Shown here piece after piece: positions 9,858 to 19,774 of a stretch of DNA of 25,688 nucleotides. The position numbers were made by a program, and so were the translations under genes. The number at the start of each line of letters is the position of its first letter. Within the stretch, counting starts at the first letter, position 1. The notes beneath the pieces were generated by a model that worked only from the letters and a program-made list of their open reading frames with translations, was not told where the DNA came from and made no database searches. This stretch comes from Atractiella rhizophila (lineage: Eukaryota), in the NCBI GenBank assembly GCA_021432655.1, contig MU271334.1, positions 62,001 through 87,688 on the forward strand. Direction: 5' to 3'.

Positions 9858-11540
9858 AAAATCAGACATCCTATTCTCGGTCGCGATCACTCGAATTTTC
9901 AATCTAGCCACAGTGGTACGATATTTCCTTTGTGACGCGGTCCCAAGAACTGTCGAAACTATTCTAACCTACCCAGTCATAGGAGTAGTCTCCCGTAGAA
10001 CAACCTCCGACACAACGGGGGATGGGCAAAACCCAAAGGTATACGCGTTGTATCTGAATGAATTACCAGCTTGACGGAAAGGTTACTCCTTTCAAGACAC
10101 TTTGCTCTTCTTCGTTTCAAAGTGCACGCCTCAAATAAATTTCAGACATGTGCCTAGTGTTCAAATTCAGGCTTTAGGAATCTAGTTCAATTCTCATTTG
10201 GTTGCAACTTCACGGTTATAGTACATGACATGATGTTTATTTGGTTCGACCTTTGATAAAAAAAACTTGACTCTTTCGGATTTCTAGGGTTTGTCATCAT
10301 TTTGGTAATCATTATAGTATATTAACCCCGTGACCTCGTTGTCTGGTGATTTCCAACAGAGTTAGCAAATCTAAATGACCATACTTCGCTAATCACACTG
10401 TCTAGAATATTTTCATGTAATGGACACCTGGGCAAAAAGAGAATGGCACAACTCTTGGTTGTTAAACGATTTTGATGGCTTTGCTGAGTGTAAACAAGGT
10501 GGCAACAAAAAGCAGTGAGTAATATTCGACATCGCAGGGATTTACTAATGTTTAGCAAGGGGAACGTGAATTTTCCGTCTCGGAGTGCACTACAGGCTGT
10601 CCGGGAGATCACATGTACAACACAGGCAACGACAGGTTGGTGAGATGACATGATCATAGGTGATATCAAAATGAGGGCAAAGATACAGTCATAGACAATG
10701 TTAACGTTACCAACAACAACAACATCATGGGTGATGACAGCGTGGTAGAGGAAAGCGGCGAACCCGTCTCGCGTGAAGTCTCCCCCACCACCACCCAAAT
10801 CTGTCAGACCGTTACACCAACAGGACGACATCGAATCCACTCTGAGCTCCCTTCCAAACATGCTCACGTTGCAGTCATGCAGGTTCTCCTGCATTGCATC
10901 GGCACCACATGGACTGACGTTGCTTCTTGCTTGAATCGATGTTCTCTTGGTTGCGTCTGTTGTGGTGGTAGATGGATGCCAGAATCAGGATGAGTTGGTC
11001 GACGTTAAGAGTGGTCGAAAAGAGAGCAGAGCTGTCGCGCTTTGTAAGGTCTGTTGAACCGAGAAACAAATTAGAAGCCCCTCAACACGCTGTAGGAACT
11101 GTCAGATCCACCCCTGGGATACTGGTGAGAAGGAAAAATTGACCCCTGGGGGTTTGCGGGATTCTGCACCTCAGTTCGGCAAAGATGTGCACGTAAGAAT
11201 GGTCCAGTTTTCAACACGACATTGCCGACACTGTAATTGCCCAGAAAGTTGCAAGTTTGCCTAAACCTCACTTTTTGCTCCTGTCTAAGAAATGTGAGTG
11301 ACTCTCTGCAGGGTATCTTGTGTTGACCTGTTGCTAAAAGGGTGATCCGAAGACCAGGGGTCGACTTTCCAGTCATCTGTCCCTGGAAAGACCCTCCACC
11401 ATTCGTAAGGTGGAGCTCAGAGGAACCTCGGTACAGTCTTGGATGGCTACTCGAAGGAGAATTATACCGATCCATGAGCATGGAGTTCTTGAACAGGCCG
11501 GATAGAAATGCTACAAGCTGCCTGTCAGGTTTGCATCTTA

Positions 11541-11641
11541 CGCAAATCGGCGCCCGTTCGCCGGATTGCGTCTCTTATTGCCCATTTGCGTTCCCTGCGA
11601 ATCGGCGCCCGTCGCCACTGCGTCTCCCGTCGCCCATTTGC
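11541..11641 (+). repeat. GC-rich imperfect tandem duplication (~55 bp period) in the U3 part of solo LTR A
   Basis: AATCGGCGCCCGT at 11545 and 11600; TGCGTCTC and GCCCATTTGC each occur twice. Confidence 0.75.
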
Positions 11642-11823
11642 ACCTACATCACCACTTAGCCAATTGTGCCTAACCTCCTCTTATTAACTCCATGTAATCC
11701 CACTGCCACTTCCCCTTTTAGTTCTCTTACATGTTTCATCTGCTCTCCTCCACGCTCTGTGGCAGTGTTATTCCGCTTGTATATATAGATCCGAGAGTAG
11801 TGGAGGTGACCTTAGAGTATTCT

Positions 11824-11892
11824 CTTAGGTTTATCTCCACTACAGGTTAGTCTTCATGTCATATCATGCACTTAGGTTTATCTCCACTACAG
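11824..11892 (+). repeat. Direct repeat X-(GT..)-X in solo LTR A defining a 47-nt intron-like unit at 11846-11892
   Basis: CTTAGGTTTATCTCCACTACAG at 11824-11845 and 11871-11892; the spacer starts GTTAGT; hairpin GTAGTGGAG/CTCCACTAC at 11797-11843. Confidence 0.85.
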
Positions 11893-12048
11893 ACGCATCG
11901 CCTATCGGCGACCGCACATAGTGTCAGCCCTAACACTGCCTCATCTTTGTGCTAAAAAGTGGGAGAGCGAGAACATGTTTGTCACTCCCTGAACCACCCT
12001 TCGAAGTCTTTCTACATTTAATGTGTTAAAGGGAAGGTCCACTCGCTG

Positions 12049-12543
12049 TGTTAGAATTGGTGGTTTTTATTAGACGTTCTTATATGTTTCTTCCTCTTTG
12101 TCTTATTGTTGTAACGCGTCTTCCATATTTGTACGTGATTGCGGAGTTTTGTGGTGTTTGTTTTATGTGGGCACTTCGCCACTTTGCCGGGACTATAAAA
12201 GACTTATCCTGTTTTCTTCAAATCTTTTCCCCAATCGATTTGCTTGTCATTTCACTGCTTACACTCGATTGGGGAAACCAGGTATGTTCATTACTTTATT
12301 CACTTGAAATACCAAATCGATTTGCTTGTCATTTCACTGCTTACACTCAATTGGGGAAACCAGGTATGTTCATTACTTTATTCACTTGAAATACGAATCG
12401 ATTTGCTTGTCATTTCACTGCTTACACTCGATTGGGGAAACCAGGTATGTTCATTACTTTATTCACTTGAAATACAAATCGATTTGCTTGTCATTTCACT
12501 GCTTACACTCGATTGGGGAAACCAGAGCAAATCCTTTCTCTTT
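12049..12543 (+). repeat. 5' LTR of the copia element (495 bp) with ~3.6 copies of an 81-82 bp unit
   Basis: Starts TGTTAGAATT, ends CTTTCTCTTT; unit starts at 12233, 12315, 12396 and 12477. Confidence 0.96.
12194..12200 (+). promoter_or_regulatory. Candidate TATA box of the copia LTR
   Basis: TATAAAA 39 nt upstream of the first repeat unit; same motif in the 3' LTR. Confidence 0.6.
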
Positions 12544-12555
12544 TGGTAGCGAGAG
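12544..12555 (+). other. Primer-binding site TGGTAGCGAGAG (probably initiator tRNA-Met)
   Basis: Directly follows the 5' LTR; TGG complements tRNA CCA; the first 8 nt equal the yeast Ty1 PBS start TGGTAGCG. Confidence 0.75.
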
Positions 12556-12597
12556 AGTGTTGCGAACAGCGACATCGAAGAGAAATCTGCGCGCGAA

Positions 12598-15500
12598 ATG
12601 TCACGACAAGAGCCCACCACTCCTGAAAATCAAACGAGAGCTGCGAACGATACACCTCAACCTCCGTCTCGTGCCCCTCCTCCTAGAAGTACGGTTACTC
12701 CTCCCCTCATCGATCCCTCATCATTCTCCATTCCACTCTCTCTCTCAAACAGTGGCAGAAGTGGGGAAATGTCGGTGAATGGCGCGATTCAAAGCCTCCT
12801 CGCGAACGATCCCATTCCTGAACTTGATTACAACAACGCGAAGATATTTTTCAAGCTCATCGATCAAGCGTTTAGAGCATATGGTGTTGCGTTGGTTACC
12901 GAAGGCGTTCTTACGGAGCCGATAAATCCTAAGACAGGAATCACGCTGACCGAACAAAGGAGGATCATGCAATCTGGAGGTACCATCAGCATCAGGGAAG
13001 CAACGGAGGAGAGAATCGAAGCGTATATGAGGGCGCTTACGGTTTATCAGCAAAAAGCTGCAATTGCGATGGCGTTATTGAGGAAAGCTGTGGGAAATAC
13101 GGCAAAAGTCTTTATCGAAGGAACCAAAGATCCTGTCAATGCTATGAAGATTCTCAAGCAAAAATTCGATACAACGCAGTATATCGACGTGGCTCACCTG
13201 CTCAAGGAACTCCTCGATTTCGTCTTCCCTGCCAGTGGACTCTCTCTCTCCGATTGGATTGCGAAGTTGCACGAAAAACGTAGACACTTCAACGAAGCGC
13301 AGTCAACTATTCAGATTTCGGACGCTTTTCTCTCCTTGATCCTTATCAACGGTCTTGATGAGCCTCTCCGGAGATGGCTTTCCTCTACCGGGGTGACACA
13401 AACGGATCTCGCGACCGTTGTGCAGAAGCTTACAGCAGAGGAGCAAGCCAGGAAGAACAGGGGAGGGAGCATGGAAGATGCGGGATTGTCACTATTTGCA
13501 AGGATGGAGGGTCAACAAAAGCAGAACAGCACTCCCAAGAAGTCCAACTCCGCTAGCCTGGCCGCGCGAATCTCCTCTCCGAACAAATCTGGCACTAGAA
13601 CTCCAACGAAGCCTGCTGCGTCAACGTCGCGATCTCCTCCTGTTACACCTCTCATCAACAGGATCGCTCCAAACGCGCGAGCACTCAAGAACTGGGGAGA
13701 ATGGCCACATGGCACTTCCCCCAAGGGTTTCTTTCGTATTGGACTTAACCAGTGCTACCATTGTGGACAAGAGGGACACTGGGGAAGAGAGTGTACCTTG
13801 CCTAAGCACCAACAGATTGATTCCCTCGTACGAGAATTCAAAAAGTTCAACATCGATCTACCTCGAGCAAACGCCAACGCTTTCCTCATCAAGGTCTTCG
13901 ATGAAGGAAACGCTCCTGCGATTTTTGCTGAAGATATCAATCCAGAGACTCAACGTCCTTATTTCGAAGAACCAGATGTCATCTCGAGCTATGACAATCA
14001 TTCTCAAGACGTGAATTCTGCGCACTACGTCATACACACCTCTGATGGCAAGATGGACGAAACGTTTGTAGCTGGGGACTTTGGGGCGTATCTGGCGATG
14101 GTGAATGACGATGATACCTTGGAGCAGGGAGATGAATTGGAACCTCTCATTCAAGAACCAGCTTTCGAGATTTTTACGAAACAAGACAACTTCTGGACAG
14201 AGGATGTTAGAGAGTTGGAAATCGTTCATGCCCTTTCTGCTTTCGCCGCGCAGCTTCAAGATGAAGACCAGGTTATCCGTGTTGCAGGAGCGTCAAACTA
14301 TCTCGACGACTTCCTCGCCACGATGGAAACCAGAGACAGGAAGGATGTCGAAGGCTTGAGTGCTGAGCATAAGATTGTTCAAGATGGCCTCAAGCAGAAG
14401 TTGAAGGATGTCGTCGATTACGTGTTGAAGAACCTCTCGCCTGCCACTCTCAGCGTTCCACCCCAGTTGGAACGAAGGGGTGATAGTGGTCAGGGAGAAG
14501 GTGGTTTAGGGGAGTCGATGGTGGTGCCATCGCTCTCCAGCAGCTCGAATCACGGAAAGGAGCAAGATGATCTCAAACTGGGTGGTACTGTCCAAAACGC
14601 ATTCGTAGTGTCTCCCGTAAATCTTTCGATGGATCACGTTCCCGTCCACCCTCCTACGAATCCAGATGCGAAGCAGGAACGATTTCACCTTGATTCTGGC
14701 GCCTCTATTCATCTTACGGATTCTCAGAGGTTACTTCACAACTATCGAGAACTCCAGGTGCCCATCGCGATCACTGGAGTTTTCGGTTCGACTGGTTATG
14801 CTGTCGGAGTGGGAGACTTGAGACCAGTTTTTCAAGCATGGAACGGGTTGATCCACTCTGGGACGATTAGAAACGTATTCTACGCACCCCAGCTCGGAGT
14901 AAACCTCATCTCCTCGAGAATCTTGATGAAGTCTGGAGTAAAGTTTACCAACGACACTAGAACCGTGTACCTAGCTGGAAGAGACGATAAAGTGTTCGGG
15001 ACTTGCGAAATAGGTCACAAACTTATCACCCTTCAGGCGAGTTTCATCCCAGCCTCTCCCTCGTCCCCTCGACCAAATGCTTCTCTAAATGCTTTCCCTG
15101 CAGTATCAATGCGTACCTGGCACCTCCGTCTAGGACATCCCGGAATGGATAGGCTTAAGCAAGCCATAAAGGATGGATTGGTTTTGGATTCTCAAATAAA
15201 GTCTTGCAATGAGAACGAAGTTCAACAGTGCGTTGTATGTGCGAAAGGGAAAGCACGTTACGATAAGAGCAAGACGCCTGAAAAGGACAGAGAAAGCGTT
15301 GTGGGAAGGACTTTTGGTTTCGATACTTGGGGACCGGCTTCAGTGAGGAGCATCCAAGGATATCACTATGGTTATGGGGCAATCGATGAAGCATCGCGAT
15401 TCATGGTCATCGGAGGGATGAAATCGAAGTCAGAAGCCCCTGAGAAAATAGAAGATACGAGGGCTTTCATTAAAAGGGAGAAAAATCAGGACGTGTGCAT

Positions 15501-18303
15501 AATCAGGCACGATAGAGCGATGGAATTCACTTCAAAGGCAGTTGAAGAGTGGAAAAAGAAGCACAACATCACATCGATGAGAACGCTTCCGTATGCGCAT
15601 GAACAAGGGGGGCTCTGGGAACGTCAGTGGTACACACTCCTGAATATCACGCGTTGTCTCCTCATTCAGTCTGGGCTCCCGTTATCGTTTTGGTACGAAG
15701 CAATCAAAGTTGCAGTAAAGCTACGGAACATAATGCCAACGAAGGGAAATAAGGATGGAAAGTCAGCGTATGAGGTGTTCTACGGCAAGAAACCGGACAC
15801 GACGCATCTAAGGACATTCGGTTGTCTTGCTGCTGTGACTATAATGCCAGAAAAAAGGGGATCGAAACTATCGCCAAGGGCGAAGTTGATGTACTTTGTC
15901 GGATACGTCTCAGACGGATACGGGTGGCGTTTTTGGGACCCAGAAGGAGGCCCAACAAAGATTGTTGAGAGTCGATCCGCGAAGTTCTTCGAAGATAAGT
16001 TCTATGAGAAGAGGTCAGAACAAGACCAGGAAATTTTGAGGAAGATGAGTACGGACGGTCTCCTTTTGTTATCGCCGCCACATGGAGATGATGAAGACGA
16101 GGATGACGATGACGGAGTACTGGAAGAGGAGTTGGATGGACCTCATGTAACACGATCAACCGAGGAACGGGAATGGAAACCACGAACCGTTGATTTTTCA
16201 AGCAGGCCGTCTCCATCTCCACCACCCTCTCCCTCTCCCGTACCAAGGTCCACTCTGTCCATAGATCAGAACACATCGCCCCCGGAGTTCACCCACTCGT
16301 CGAATTCATCTCGAGTTCCCGCACCCAGGAACGTCCGACATATGGTGACCGCTTTTGAACAGAATCTAGAGAGAGAACGCCAGCACGCGAAGGAAACTGA
16401 AATCTTCACACCAATGAAGAATGCCTTGAGGAGGGGGTTACGTAGAAAGGAGAGGAGGGACTACCGACAAATGCATGAGAAAGGACTGTGTACGATAGCT
16501 GAGGGAGATTTAGCTGTTGAAGACCTCCTCCGAGGAGTGACAACGGCAAAATCGGATGGTGGGACTCATGCCCTTCTTGCGCGCATCTCGGAGGGACCGT
16601 ATCACTTCCTAATCCCTGACGAAGATGACGATGAAGAGTTTGAGGTTTATTGGACCGGAAATCTTGATGAGCCATCGTATGCGCAGGCAATGGCAGGGGC
16701 GGATGCTGAAAAATGGAGGATGGCTATGGATACAGAGATGGCGGCGTTAGATGCGATGGGGACATGGAGAAGGAAATGCATTGAACTGCCGTCAGGTCGT
16801 AAGGCGTTGGGAGTAAAGTGGGTGTTGTTGATCAAACGAGAACCGGATGGGACGGTGCGAAAGTACAAAGCGAGACTGGTGGTGCGGGGAGATCAGCAGA
16901 CAGAAGGGGTCGACTATGCGGAAACTTGGTCACCTACCGTGCGGATGACATCCCTTCAAGCGATAATGGCACTATCTGCTGTGCTCAAACTCCACCGTCG
17001 TCAGTTCGATATTGGCAATGCATTCCTCAATGGGAAGTTAGACGAAGAGGTCTACGTAAGACAGGCGCCTGGATACACTGACCCATCCAATCCGAAAGCA
17101 GTGCATCAGCTCTCGAAGGCCCTGTATGGACTGTGTCAAGCTGGCAGACAATTTAATATCGATCTTCATGAAAAACTTACCAACATCGGTTTCCGTAGGA
17201 CCGAATCCGATCACGGCGTATACACGCTATCTCGTGGAAAGGATTTTATCTTCCTGTGCCTCCACGTCGATGATGGATTATTGGTGTCCACCGACGAAAA
17301 ATTAATCGATAACATCTTGGACAACTTGCGAAAACACTACAAGGTCGAATCCGGTGAGGCAAAGCTGTTTCTGGGGATTGAATTGGAGGGGGACGAAGGA
17401 AGGGGGTTGTTAAAAGCGCATCAAAGGGGGTATGCGAAGAGGCTGGTCGAGCGTTACCTAGGGACGCAGGTGTCACCAGTGAGGATGCCAGTCGATTACG
17501 GGAAACGGCTTACCCCAGATTTGTCACCGAAATCAGAGGTTGAACGGGAATCCATGAAGCATGTCCCTTATCGCGAAGCCGTGGGAGCGCTCATTTATCT
17601 CACGACTTGTACTCGTCCGGATATCGCATTCGCTGTTGCAGATGTCGCTCGATATTGTGCGGACCCTGGGGTGCAACACTGGTTAGCTGTGAAGCGAATA
17701 CTTCGTTACATAGCGGGGACTTACGACTACGGGCTTCATTTTGACGGATATCAACACTCCAGCACGGCATTCGACGCCTATGTGGACGCGGATCATGGGG
17801 CAGACCCTTCCACCAGGAGGTCTGTTTCCGGTGTCCTCTTTCGCCTAGGGGGATCCGCAATTTCTTGGATTTCGAAACGGCAGCTGAGCGTAGCAATTTC
17901 GTCCACCGAGGCGGAGTATATTGCAATGTCATTGGCTACACGCGAGGCCGTATGGCTACGTCGTTTGTTTTTCGAGTTAGGATTTAGTCAAGAGGGACCT
18001 ACCTTGATCAGGGGTGATAACCAGGGTGCAATTACTCTCGCTTCGCACCCGGTTGCTCATGGAAGAACAAAACACATTGAAGTCCACTATCATTACACTA
18101 GAGAAAAGGTGTTAGACCAGTCCGTCCTCTTGAAATGGATTCCTACCAGGCAACAATTGGCGGACATCCTCACAAAAGGCCTGGCGGCGAACCTGCAGCT
18201 TCGTTTCTGTTTCCAGATTGGCTTGTTGGGAGACTCTGCAAGCGTGGAGTTCCTCGATCGGGACGTGGATGGACTTGGAGGAAATGGAGCAGTGTCGAAG
18301 TGA
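12598..18303 (+). CDS. Copia Gag-Pol polyprotein, single ORF, 1901 aa
   Basis: Zinc knuckle CYHCGQEGHWGREC; protease LDSGAS; WHLRLGH...CVVC; integrase FDTWGP / RHDRAMEF / LWER; RT KYKARLVVRG, FDIGNAFLNG, ALYGLCQA, HVDD; RNase H YVDADH, TEAEY, DNQGA, LADILTK. Confidence 0.98.
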   Translation: MSRQEPTTPENQTRAANDTPQPPSRAPPPRSTVTPPLIDPSSFSIPLSLSNSGRSGEMSVNGAIQSLLANDPIPELDYNNAKIFFKLIDQAFRAYGVALVTEGVLTEPINPKTGITLTEQRRIMQSGGTISIREATEERIEAYMRALTVYQQKAAIAMALLRKAVGNTAKVFIEGTKDPVNAMKILKQKFDTTQYIDVAHLLKELLDFVFPASGLSLSDWIAKLHEKRRHFNEAQSTIQISDAFLSLILINGLDEPLRRWLSSTGVTQTDLATVVQKLTAEEQARKNRGGSMEDAGLSLFARMEGQQKQNSTPKKSNSASLAARISSPNKSGTRTPTKPAASTSRSPPVTPLINRIAPNARALKNWGEWPHGTSPKGFFRIGLNQCYHCGQEGHWGRECTLPKHQQIDSLVREFKKFNIDLPRANANAFLIKVFDEGNAPAIFAEDINPETQRPYFEEPDVISSYDNHSQDVNSAHYVIHTSDGKMDETFVAGDFGAYLAMVNDDDTLEQGDELEPLIQEPAFEIFTKQDNFWTEDVRELEIVHALSAFAAQLQDEDQVIRVAGASNYLDDFLATMETRDRKDVEGLSAEHKIVQDGLKQKLKDVVDYVLKNLSPATLSVPPQLERRGDSGQGEGGLGESMVVPSLSSSSNHGKEQDDLKLGGTVQNAFVVSPVNLSMDHVPVHPPTNPDAKQERFHLDSGASIHLTDSQRLLHNYRELQVPIAITGVFGSTGYAVGVGDLRPVFQAWNGLIHSGTIRNVFYAPQLGVNLISSRILMKSGVKFTNDTRTVYLAGRDDKVFGTCEIGHKLITLQASFIPASPSSPRPNASLNAFPAVSMRTWHLRLGHPGMDRLKQAIKDGLVLDSQIKSCNENEVQQCVVCAKGKARYDKSKTPEKDRESVVGRTFGFDTWGPASVRSIQGYHYGYGAIDEASRFMVIGGMKSKSEAPEKIEDTRAFIKREKNQDVCIIRHDRAMEFTSKAVEEWKKKHNITSMRTLPYAHEQGGLWERQWYTLLNITRCLLIQSGLPLSFWYEAIKVAVKLRNIMPTKGNKDGKSAYEVFYGKKPDTTHLRTFGCLAAVTIMPEKRGSKLSPRAKLMYFVGYVSDGYGWRFWDPEGGPTKIVESRSAKFFEDKFYEKRSEQDQEILRKMSTDGLLLLSPPHGDDEDEDDDDGVLEEELDGPHVTRSTEEREWKPRTVDFSSRPSPSPPPSPSPVPRSTLSIDQNTSPPEFTHSSNSSRVPAPRNVRHMVTAFEQNLERERQHAKETEIFTPMKNALRRGLRRKERRDYRQMHEKGLCTIAEGDLAVEDLLRGVTTAKSDGGTHALLARISEGPYHFLIPDEDDDEEFEVYWTGNLDEPSYAQAMAGADAEKWRMAMDTEMAALDAMGTWRRKCIELPSGRKALGVKWVLLIKREPDGTVRKYKARLVVRGDQQTEGVDYAETWSPTVRMTSLQAIMALSAVLKLHRRQFDIGNAFLNGKLDEEVYVRQAPGYTDPSNPKAVHQLSKALYGLCQAGRQFNIDLHEKLTNIGFRRTESDHGVYTLSRGKDFIFLCLHVDDGLLVSTDEKLIDNILDNLRKHYKVESGEAKLFLGIELEGDEGRGLLKAHQRGYAKRLVERYLGTQVSPVRMPVDYGKRLTPDLSPKSEVERESMKHVPYREAVGALIYLTTCTRPDIAFAVADVARYCADPGVQHWLAVKRILRYIAGTYDYGLHFDGYQHSSTAFDAYVDADHGADPSTRRSVSGVLFRLGGSAISWISKRQLSVAISSTEAEYIAMSLATREAVWLRRLFFELGFSQEGPTLIRGDNQGAITLASHPVAHGRTKHIEVHYHYTREKVLDQSVLLKWIPTRQQLADILTKGLAANLQLRFCFQIGLLGDSASVEFLDRDVDGLGGNGAVSK

Positions 18304-18310
18304 AGGGGGG
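18297..18310 (+). other. Polypurine tract
   Basis: GAAGTGAAGGGGGG immediately before the 3' LTR, overlapping the pol stop codon. Confidence 0.85.
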
Positions 18311-18642
18311 TGTTAGAATTGGTGGTTTTTATTAGACGTTCTTATATGTTTCTTCCTCTTTGTCTTATTGTTGTAACGCGTCTTCCATATTTGTACGTGA
18401 TTGCGGAGTTTTGTGGTGTTTGTTTTATGTGGGCACTTCGCCACTTTGCCGGGACTATAAAAGACTTATCCTGTTTTCTTCAAATCTTTTCCCCAATCGA
18501 TTTGCTTGTCATTTCACTGCTTACACTCGATTGGGGAAACCAGGTATGTTCATTACTTTATTCACTTGAAATACAAATCGATTTGCTTGTCATTTCACTG
18601 CTTACACTCGATTGGGGAAACCAGAGCAAATCCTTTCTCTTT
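18311..18642 (+). repeat. 3' LTR of the copia element (332 bp) with ~1.6 copies of the 81 bp unit
   Basis: Equals the 5' LTR minus 163 bp (82+81); units start at 18495 and 18576. Confidence 0.96.
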
Positions 18643-18947
18643 CGCTGGATTTGACTTCTTGAAAGATGGGGATTTTATTCCTGTGCTCACATTCACAATG
18701 AACACATCGAAGACGCTGCTGAACAAAGCGGTGGATGAAGTATATGTGCAGAGAGGAAAGAATGTGTTTGGAATAAAGGAGGATCCTCAATGGTATTGTC
18801 ACCCCTGTACCAATGCTAACCCTTCCATATCCTCACATGCAGCATATTGTCCTCTTCCTCATCATGAGCCTCACACAGAATGTCTTCGAAGTTAATGCTG
18901 TAAGTCTTGTTGCAGGAATGTGTCTTTGTGCAACCCAGGGGAGATGA

Positions 18948-19426
18948 TGTTATGGCAGGCACTATGTGTGGTTGCCGGCAGGGCGATGCATCTGTAGTGG
19001 AGATAAACCTAAGTGATATATGCCATGAGAAGACTAACCTGTAGTGGAGATAAACCTAAGAGAATACTCTAAGGTCACCACCACTACATCTTGATGTATA
19101 TATACATATGTAATGGCACCATCACAAACTGTAAAATGTATCTCTTGAAACATGTGGAATATCTAGATCAGGAAAGTAACAAAGGGAATAGCCAGAAATA
19201 AGATATACTAAGTAGGACGAATGAGAAAGGACATCAAGACAAAAATGGTGATGGTGCAGACCGGCGAAAAGTATAAGGTTTACTGAGCAGCGACTTGTGT
19301 GAGTAGAGGGAAGGCGGTGGAGAGTGTGGGAGTATGCAAAGCGGCGACGAGTAGACACGTGACTCTATGAGTAGGTCACGTGACTTGGATTGGTGCATTT
19401 CAGTAATGTGCGGGGCAAGTCTGACA
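18948..19426 (-). mobile_element. Solo LTR B (479 bp), related to solo LTR A, opposite orientation
   Basis: On the minus strand it starts TGTCAGACTTGC (A: TGTCAGGTTTGC) and ends CATAACA; flanks GATGA (18943-18947) and GTTGA (19427-19431), 4/5 match; TATATATA at 19097-19104; 22-nt repeat at 18992-19013 and 19039-19060. Confidence 0.78.
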
Positions 19427-19578: not shown

Positions 19579-19774
19579 TGTGAGAGGCTCGTTCGGCTCT
19601 GCTCTAGATGGTGAACAACCACTCTCAGGATGCATTGCAGGACCTACCTGCTCTAGATGGTGAACAACCACTAGAGCAGGAGAGGAGGAAGTGTACTACA
19701 TAGCGGGGCAAAGTGGGGCAAAGCACGAAGACAACGGTGGGCGGTGTGGTGAGTGCCATGCTCCCACTCTCACA
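19579..19774 (-). mobile_element. Solo LTR C (196 bp), different family
   Basis: Perfect 8-bp terminal inverted repeat TGTGAGAG/CTCTCACA; perfect TSD GATGA (19574-19578, 19775-19779); 25-nt direct repeat at 19599-19623 and 19648-19672. Orientation inferred from the splice-like signals. Confidence 0.82.

Follow-up and report, generated by a model that had tools for sequence, protein, structure and literature searches.

A candidate intron inside the long terminal repeat of a Ty1/copia element from Atractiella rhizophila, possibly rebuilt during each replication cycle

Introns are expected to disappear from anything that is reverse-transcribed from its own spliced RNA. New introns can be born when an AG-GT segment is duplicated in tandem, and AG|GT points are used in recursive splicing. 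Strong-stop transfer in Ty1 and in retroviruses is said to leave errors at template ends, as Gabriel and colleagues reportedly found in 1996. The sections of PMC12786077 that deal with the Ty1 intron-loss experiment and with artificial-intron reporters in Ty1 and plant elements describe an intron that is precisely removed and permanently lost. In foamy viruses, poly(A) choice is controlled by a U3-dependent fold together with the major splice donor, which lies within R and precedes the poly(A) signal (Schrom et al. 2013, PMC3694450, excerpt); these viruses have one R only and an acceptor beyond the long terminal repeat (LTR), and no part needs rebuilding. An intron within a copia LTR was not described in the literature searched (subscription papers and Repbase lay outside its scope); the word “intron” is absent from the excerpt of Donnart et al. 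(2017, PMC5445492), and the excerpt of a yeast transposable element review (PMC7175516) makes no mention of introns for LTRs.

The locus described here was taken from the Atractiella rhizophila assembly GCA_021432655.1 (contig MU271334.1, positions 62,001 to 87,688, forward strand). This whole stretch of 25,688 nt is called the window, and all coordinates refer to it. It holds an intact Ty1/copia element on the plus strand, flanked by the target site duplication (TSD) CGCTG at 12044-12048 and again at 18643-18647. Comparison of the LTR pair delimits a 5' LTR at 12049-12543 (495 nt as assembled) and a 3' LTR at 18311-18642 (332 nt). Between them lie a primer binding site common to the clade (PBS, 12544-12555), which we take to be of the initiator-Met tRNA type, a gag-pol open frame of 1917 aa from stop to stop (12550-18303, first ATG at 12598) and a polypurine tract (18302-18310). 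Domain matches place a zinc knuckle, a protease-type beta barrel, GAG-pre-integrase, integrase and RVT_2 in this order, i.e. with integrase 5' of reverse transcriptase as in copia. In domain order, PBS, polypurine tract, 5-bp TSD and single long frame the element resembles other Ty1/copia elements (Pseudoviridae). It differs in its LTR ends, which are TG..TT instead of TG..CA, in a doubled R-like block placed around an intron-like spacer, and in the probable position of its strand-transfer junction, inside the LTR behind this spacer and not at the U3/R edge. The LTR ends are backed by TSD-flanked solo LTRs with the same TG..TT termini (L003, L005) and by loose contig ends; in related families the LTRs end in CT, TT or CA. 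Contigs that join the left flank directly to the right flank (near 12044-12048 and 18643-18700), with several letters different, represent paralogous empty target sites.

Within the 5' LTR, a TATA box (12194-12200) lies 39 nt upstream of a 49-nt block, A1 (12233-12281), which ends in CAG at a splice donor and would correspond to the R region and first exon. It is immediately preceded by a short U3 arm (12225-12232) that in computed folds extends a hairpin over the 3' part of A1; only transcripts that come in through U3, at the 3' LTR, contain this arm. Three abutting units follow (12282-12363, 82 nt; 12364-12444, 81 nt; 12445-12525, 81 nt), before a short U5 of 18 nt (12526-12543). In line with the earlier note, each unit starts with GTATGT, carries CTTAC 19 nt before its end and closes with CCAG; the single unit of the 3' LTR (18544-18624) is identical to unit 3, and outside unit number the two LTRs are identical. 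Tandem Repeats Finder gave the array a score of 563 with 3.6 copies, so the array is not a chance pattern. What had been left out of that description is block A, which is the key to the mechanism: the 49 nt before unit 1 recur at the end of each unit, and the array is thus A-(B-A)n. Unit 3, the candidate 81-nt intron predicted from its sequence motifs, accordingly consists of a spacer B (12445-12476, donor GTATGT) and a second copy, A2 (12477-12525), with a branch-like CTTAC at 12502 and a CAG acceptor. In the 3' LTR, A1 occupies 18495-18543 and U5 18625-18642. Each donor also contains an ATG (12284, 12366, 12447) that opens a 7-codon frame, and a leader left unspliced would hence bear upstream ORFs ahead of the gag ATG (12598).

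The three-unit array itself is probably an assembly chimera, in which the assembler walked round the A repeat and took each genomic allele once. A genome search recovered three other LTRs of the window family, namely a 3' LTR on contig C210 (L002) and TSD-flanked solo LTRs on C34 (L003) and C188, with one unit each. The variants of units 1 and 2, thought to be private to this locus, are alleles of these copies: the junction allele of unit 1 is that of the C34 solo LTR, while the A variant of unit 1 followed by the junction allele of unit 2 is the haplotype of the C210 3' LTR. Read from left to right, the array starts with the junction allele of C34, continues with the A variant and junction allele of C210 and closes with the allele proper to the window; each occurs exactly once.

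The copy numbers expected for 31-mers were checked against the contig depths of two DNA contig sets (X1 and X2) from one sample, possibly the assembly's own source; 31-mers cannot phase variants that lie 37-46 nt apart. With one unit per LTR, X1 gives single-copy depths of 157, 164 and 161 (locus junction 163), as opposed to 157, 109 and 118 with the array as assembled. In X2 the values are 97, 100, 114 and 96 with one unit versus 97, 100, 83 and 86 as assembled, and three units fit almost equally well. Over 20 combinations the best depth fit was six units in six LTRs (0.059), tied between a 1+1 and a 2+0 split of the units. Three units in this LTR scored 0.251, or 0.099 if a C210 LTR missing from the assembly is without a unit, with a range of 0.099-0.53 that depends on that missing LTR. 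Its existence follows from the loose contig ends: they reveal another three left and four right flanks, which gives C210 a 5' LTR that the assembly lacks; no TSD was found before the C210 gap.

Target site duplications point in the same direction. Among 16 LTR pairs on the same contig, nine have an exact TSD, one has a TSD with one mismatch and six have none. The left flank of the C145 pair equals the right flank of C115, and its right flank equals the left flank of C814, so the assembly evidently joins different copies. The TSDs crossed between these contigs (L080, L076, L077, L081), as well as C58 and C629, mark mis-joined or recombined copies. Two further two-unit 5' LTRs that are paired on their contig with a one-unit 3' LTR (C145, C111a) both lack a TSD. 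Read-word depth and crossed TSDs together make an artefact the likelier source of the three-versus-one difference, which had been attributed to slippage, recombination or strand transfer. Unequal LTRs as such are not solely an artefact: unit numbers differ in 4 of the 10 TSD-supported pairs, namely the window, C85 (0/1), C403 (0/1, with one TSD mismatch) and C142 (1/0). Unit counts and LTR identity are therefore unreliable for such elements in short-read assemblies.

It is possible, if on balance doubtful, that the window array is real and arose when the template was switched repeatedly between co-packaged RNAs from different copies, or through later exchange with other copies; the left LTR would then have been built from another template than the right, as had been suggested before. 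The TSD at the locus is correct, an A variant followed by its junction allele is the order of an unspliced C210-type 5' end, two-unit LTRs seem to be real in another family, and the X2 depths are compatible with three units. Such a history would nevertheless require three donors, one of them known only as a solo LTR. The X1 depths, moreover, give a count of two for the C210-type junction, already consumed by the two LTRs of C210 itself, and mis-joins are evident in this same assembly (C145, C115, C814).

Whatever the number of units at this locus, the module is real and conserved. The layout U3-TATA-A-[GT..B-A..AG]-U5 is a recurrent feature of a single copia clade, both in this genome and in two elements from metagenomes. 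Among the best 30 loci in a search with reverse transcriptase-RNase H (RT-RH), it is present in most of those above about 44% identity that have a 3' LTR in view. The families with the layout share 44-76% RT-RH identity with the window protein, and their A blocks measure 22-59 nt; A and B sequences are unrelated between families. Seven further LTR searches yielded 130 parsed records with 0, 1, 2 or 3 units; automatic unit counts run low where motifs are mutated, and only hand-checked rows were used. Of 33 metagenome loci 25 were inspected, and three (L266 and L267/L268, that is, two elements from independent assemblies with 45-49% identity, one with a GC/GT donor) carry the layout; the other inspected loci are more distant (26-43% identity) or have no LTR in view. 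Among viral contigs, 21 pattern matches included no relative. In a quick tree, from which three frameshifted rows were skipped, the elements with the layout fall into one clade including L266 and L267 (SH-aLRT 99). This clade holds 21 rows: for 19 the family has the unit, one has intron-less LTRs only and one has no LTR in view. Outside it stand three rows from the same genome without a unit, and L052, on a long branch, with a similar unit.

Unit number varies within this clade. In a family with an A block of 26-28 nt, LTRs with 0, 1 and 2 units are all present, and its two-unit LTRs (L219, L220) look real, as a word-based assembler could not invent units if its word length exceeds A. Exact intron-less LTRs exist too, including TSD-flanked elements without a unit in either LTR (C294, C147, C161). 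They are no proof of splicing, since a deletion between two A blocks also yields an intron-less LTR. In the subfamily L125-L134 and its relatives the LTRs are mostly intron-less; unit loss may be frequent or tolerated there, and the intron may not be required for movement. The element L024 (contig C16) has one unit in its 5' LTR, none in its 3' LTR and no TSD; its LTRs are identical over 190 nt of U3 and A and differ at about 4 of 51 positions in U5, and compared with the window's family its hairpin stem is changed on both sides. Smaller irregularities are a 17-nt duplication of the end of A before U5 in the C111 5' LTR (L057), a 4-nt insert at the donor in L169 and an internal 2-kb duplication (99.7%) in L061.

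The reading of the unit as intron-like is supported by its conservation over many families, in which both layout and splice-type ends are kept. In 20 representative units the end is YAG throughout, and the start is GT in 19 and GC in one. Their length of 47-88 nt falls within the host intron range, and a likely host intron in the window also begins with GTATGT. The repeat stops at an AG, with a forward extension of just 0-2 nt in all single-unit LTR rows; this AG stands before the donor and again, as YAG, before U5 in 20/20 representatives. The edge is the one expected if A2-U5 was copied from an RNA in which A1 had been spliced to U5. Other signals are weaker. A CTNAY motif lies 15-35 nt from the unit end in 14/20 representatives and is missing by pattern in 6/20; the branch-like motifs are non-canonical (CTTAC, CTCAC, CTCAT), canonical CTRAC occurs in 0/20, and some donors are weak (GTAGGA, GTAGGG, GTTAGT). 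B often closes with a word resembling AATAAA, AATGAA or TTGCAT, the first two types being confined to some families, and a poly(A) role for these words is a guess.

The upstream edge of the repeat is fixed as well. A1 mostly starts at a pyrimidine|A step, and a TATA-like motif lies 32-44 nt above it in 13/20 representatives. This spacing matches the -40 to -35 distance reported for Cryptococcus (10.1101/2023.07.18.549460, excerpt). A1 thus begins where strong-stop DNA would be expected to end, and transcription in the window would begin with the first base of A1, 12233 (C|A). The bases directly before A2 differ in 209 of 318 within-family pairs (17 expected from background), as compared with 5 of 318 for those before A1; the pairs, from 86 LTRs in 13 families after four LTRs with deletions or N were dropped, are not independent, and the hand-set block lengths can sharpen the junction peak. 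Per-site difference is 0.50 at -1, 0.19 at -2 and 0-0.13 elsewhere. In the window this clade-wide mutation hot spot falls at 12475-12476 and is probably the scar of minus-strand strong-stop transfer, with A2 as the place where the jump would usually land. The same hot spot accounts for the clustering, at the B/A2 junction, of the variants once regarded as private. A1 and A2 change together: within LTRs 3097 of 3148 sites are identical between the two copies, and at 11 sites both A copies of an LTR carry the same variant, in the closest cases 5 and 8 nt from the AG. Finally, the hairpin between the U3 arm and the 3' part of A1 beats shuffled U3 tails in 18 of 23 cases (p<=0.05; z -3.5 in the window) with sequences that differ by family, and in several families the arm covers AG|G. 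Masking of the donor as in foamy viruses is not supported as a general rule, for in ensemble folds the donor was less accessible with U3 in only 11 of 23 cases (L267 was read 3 nt off).

Taken together, these features are best accommodated, and with somewhat better than balanced confidence on our part, by a replication cycle in which A serves as R, splicing removes the intron from the 5' end of the RNA, and the strong-stop DNA restores it by landing on the second A. Transcription would begin with A1, at its first base. Excision of the small intron B-A2 would turn the 5' end of the RNA into A1-U5-PBS; the 3' end would read U3-A1-B and would probably be cut and polyadenylated within A2, so that, according to this proposal, the intron could not be completed there and would be retained. 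Minus-strand strong-stop DNA, a copy of A1-U5, would then anneal to A2 and not to A1, presumably because A1 is closed in the computed hairpin with the U3 arm. Reverse transcription from there would restore U3-A1-B-A-U5, re-creating the intron in each cycle with its 3' half renewed from A1, and the jump would leave its errors immediately before A2. Landing on A1 would give an intron-less LTR, and unspliced RNA landing on A2 would give two units with a zero-length exon. Combining spliced or unspliced RNA with landing on A1 or A2 yields 0, 1, 1 and 2 units, and all three numbers are seen. A likely use of such a cycle would be that a 3'-end signal in B is kept silent in the 5' LTR. Out-of-register strong-stop transfer, invoked in the earlier note for the gain of units, is the best explanation, and both hot spot and shared variants fit it; transfer onto A2 is likely the normal cycle that keeps a single unit.

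Two other explanations of the module were weighed. In the first, which we regard as unlikely, nothing is spliced: the GT serves only to bind U1 and so to silence a poly(A) signal further downstream, in the style of foamy viruses, and A1 and A2 stay alike by skipping of reverse transcriptase between the repeats before the jump onto A2. The conserved donor next to weak branch motifs would suit such a role, the excerpt of PMC3694450 states that foamy virus suppression requires U1 binding, and the junction hot spot is accounted for equally well. Left unexplained are the shared variants 5 and 8 nt from the end of A, and the fact that in every family the repeat stops precisely at a YAG and A2 closes with another. 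The second, an ordinary tandem duplication homogenised by slippage or unequal exchange at the DNA level with ancestral or incidental splice motifs, would yield 0, 1 and 2 units and asymmetric older pairs with TSD, yet it is quite improbable. It would not account for mutations concentrated on just one edge of the repeat, for boundaries that stay at the start site and the donor in families whose sequences are unrelated, or for a U3 arm that covaries, and B, once lost, would not be regained.

Under the preferred reading, an intron spliced out at the 5' end and rebuilt by transfer onto A2, the window element can be set beside the closest known systems. It shares with foamy viruses a donor shortly past the presumed start within the LTR, a fold that is altered by U3 bases, and identical LTRs with opposite jobs. 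In contrast to foamy viruses, the candidate intron is contained entirely in the LTR, with a 3' half that duplicates the exon upstream of it. The precise loss of introns from Ty1 reporters resembles the intron-less LTRs, whereas the window layout would restore the intron. Strong-stop errors in Ty1 and retroviruses are reportedly substitutions and insertions of 1-2 nt just upstream of R; here they sit at the B/A2 edge. As in introns born by duplication, the ends derive from a duplicated block, although this duplication is apparently renewed in each cycle and is not a one-off event. Multi-unit arrays contain zero-length exons as in recursive splicing, with ratchet points that would be a by-product of unit gain.

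Our judgement is evenly divided on the widest form of the proposal, namely that a fungal copia lineage and at least one further abundant LTR family of this genome use an obligately spliced RNA whose intron is rebuilt in both LTRs each cycle, that a U3 hairpin picks the landing site, that unit number (0-3) reads out splicing and landing, and that multi-unit LTRs make recursive splice points. Splicing, if confirmed, would surprise a specialist. If the proposal is true, an intron-restoring layout would be a new answer to the problem of identical LTRs serving as start and end; the element could use splicing in an intron-rich host and would be a repeatable source of short introns. The layout would also provide a DNA-only record of start sites and strand-transfer errors over many copies.

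Next to the element lie solo LTRs with the same layout. Repeats of 47-49 nt that flank the element had been considered as inverted ends of a DNA transposon and are actually solo LTRs. Two of them, with ends TG..CA, belong to a very abundant family (TGTCAG..CTAACA): 11523-11935 (plus strand, exact TSD) and 18948-19426 (minus strand, TSD with one mismatch). This family has 440 candidates and the layout hairpin-A-GT..B-A with donor GTTAGT and an A of 22 nt, and it has a junction hot spot too. An LTR pair on C442, tried as a complete element of the family, proved to be two sides of solo insertions within pol sequence of gypsy type; no gag was found at the family's C3 locus and no shared PBS among the matches listed (100 of 180). 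Further repeat families with hairpin, AG|GT and doubled block are found at L201:2345-2452, L188:2091-2184, L127 (minus strand) and L052. A third solo LTR in the window (19579-19774, minus strand), whose ends are similar to those of the copia clade, has an exact TSD and the same layout, with a 49-nt unit, donor GTAGGT and a U3 arm over the AG.
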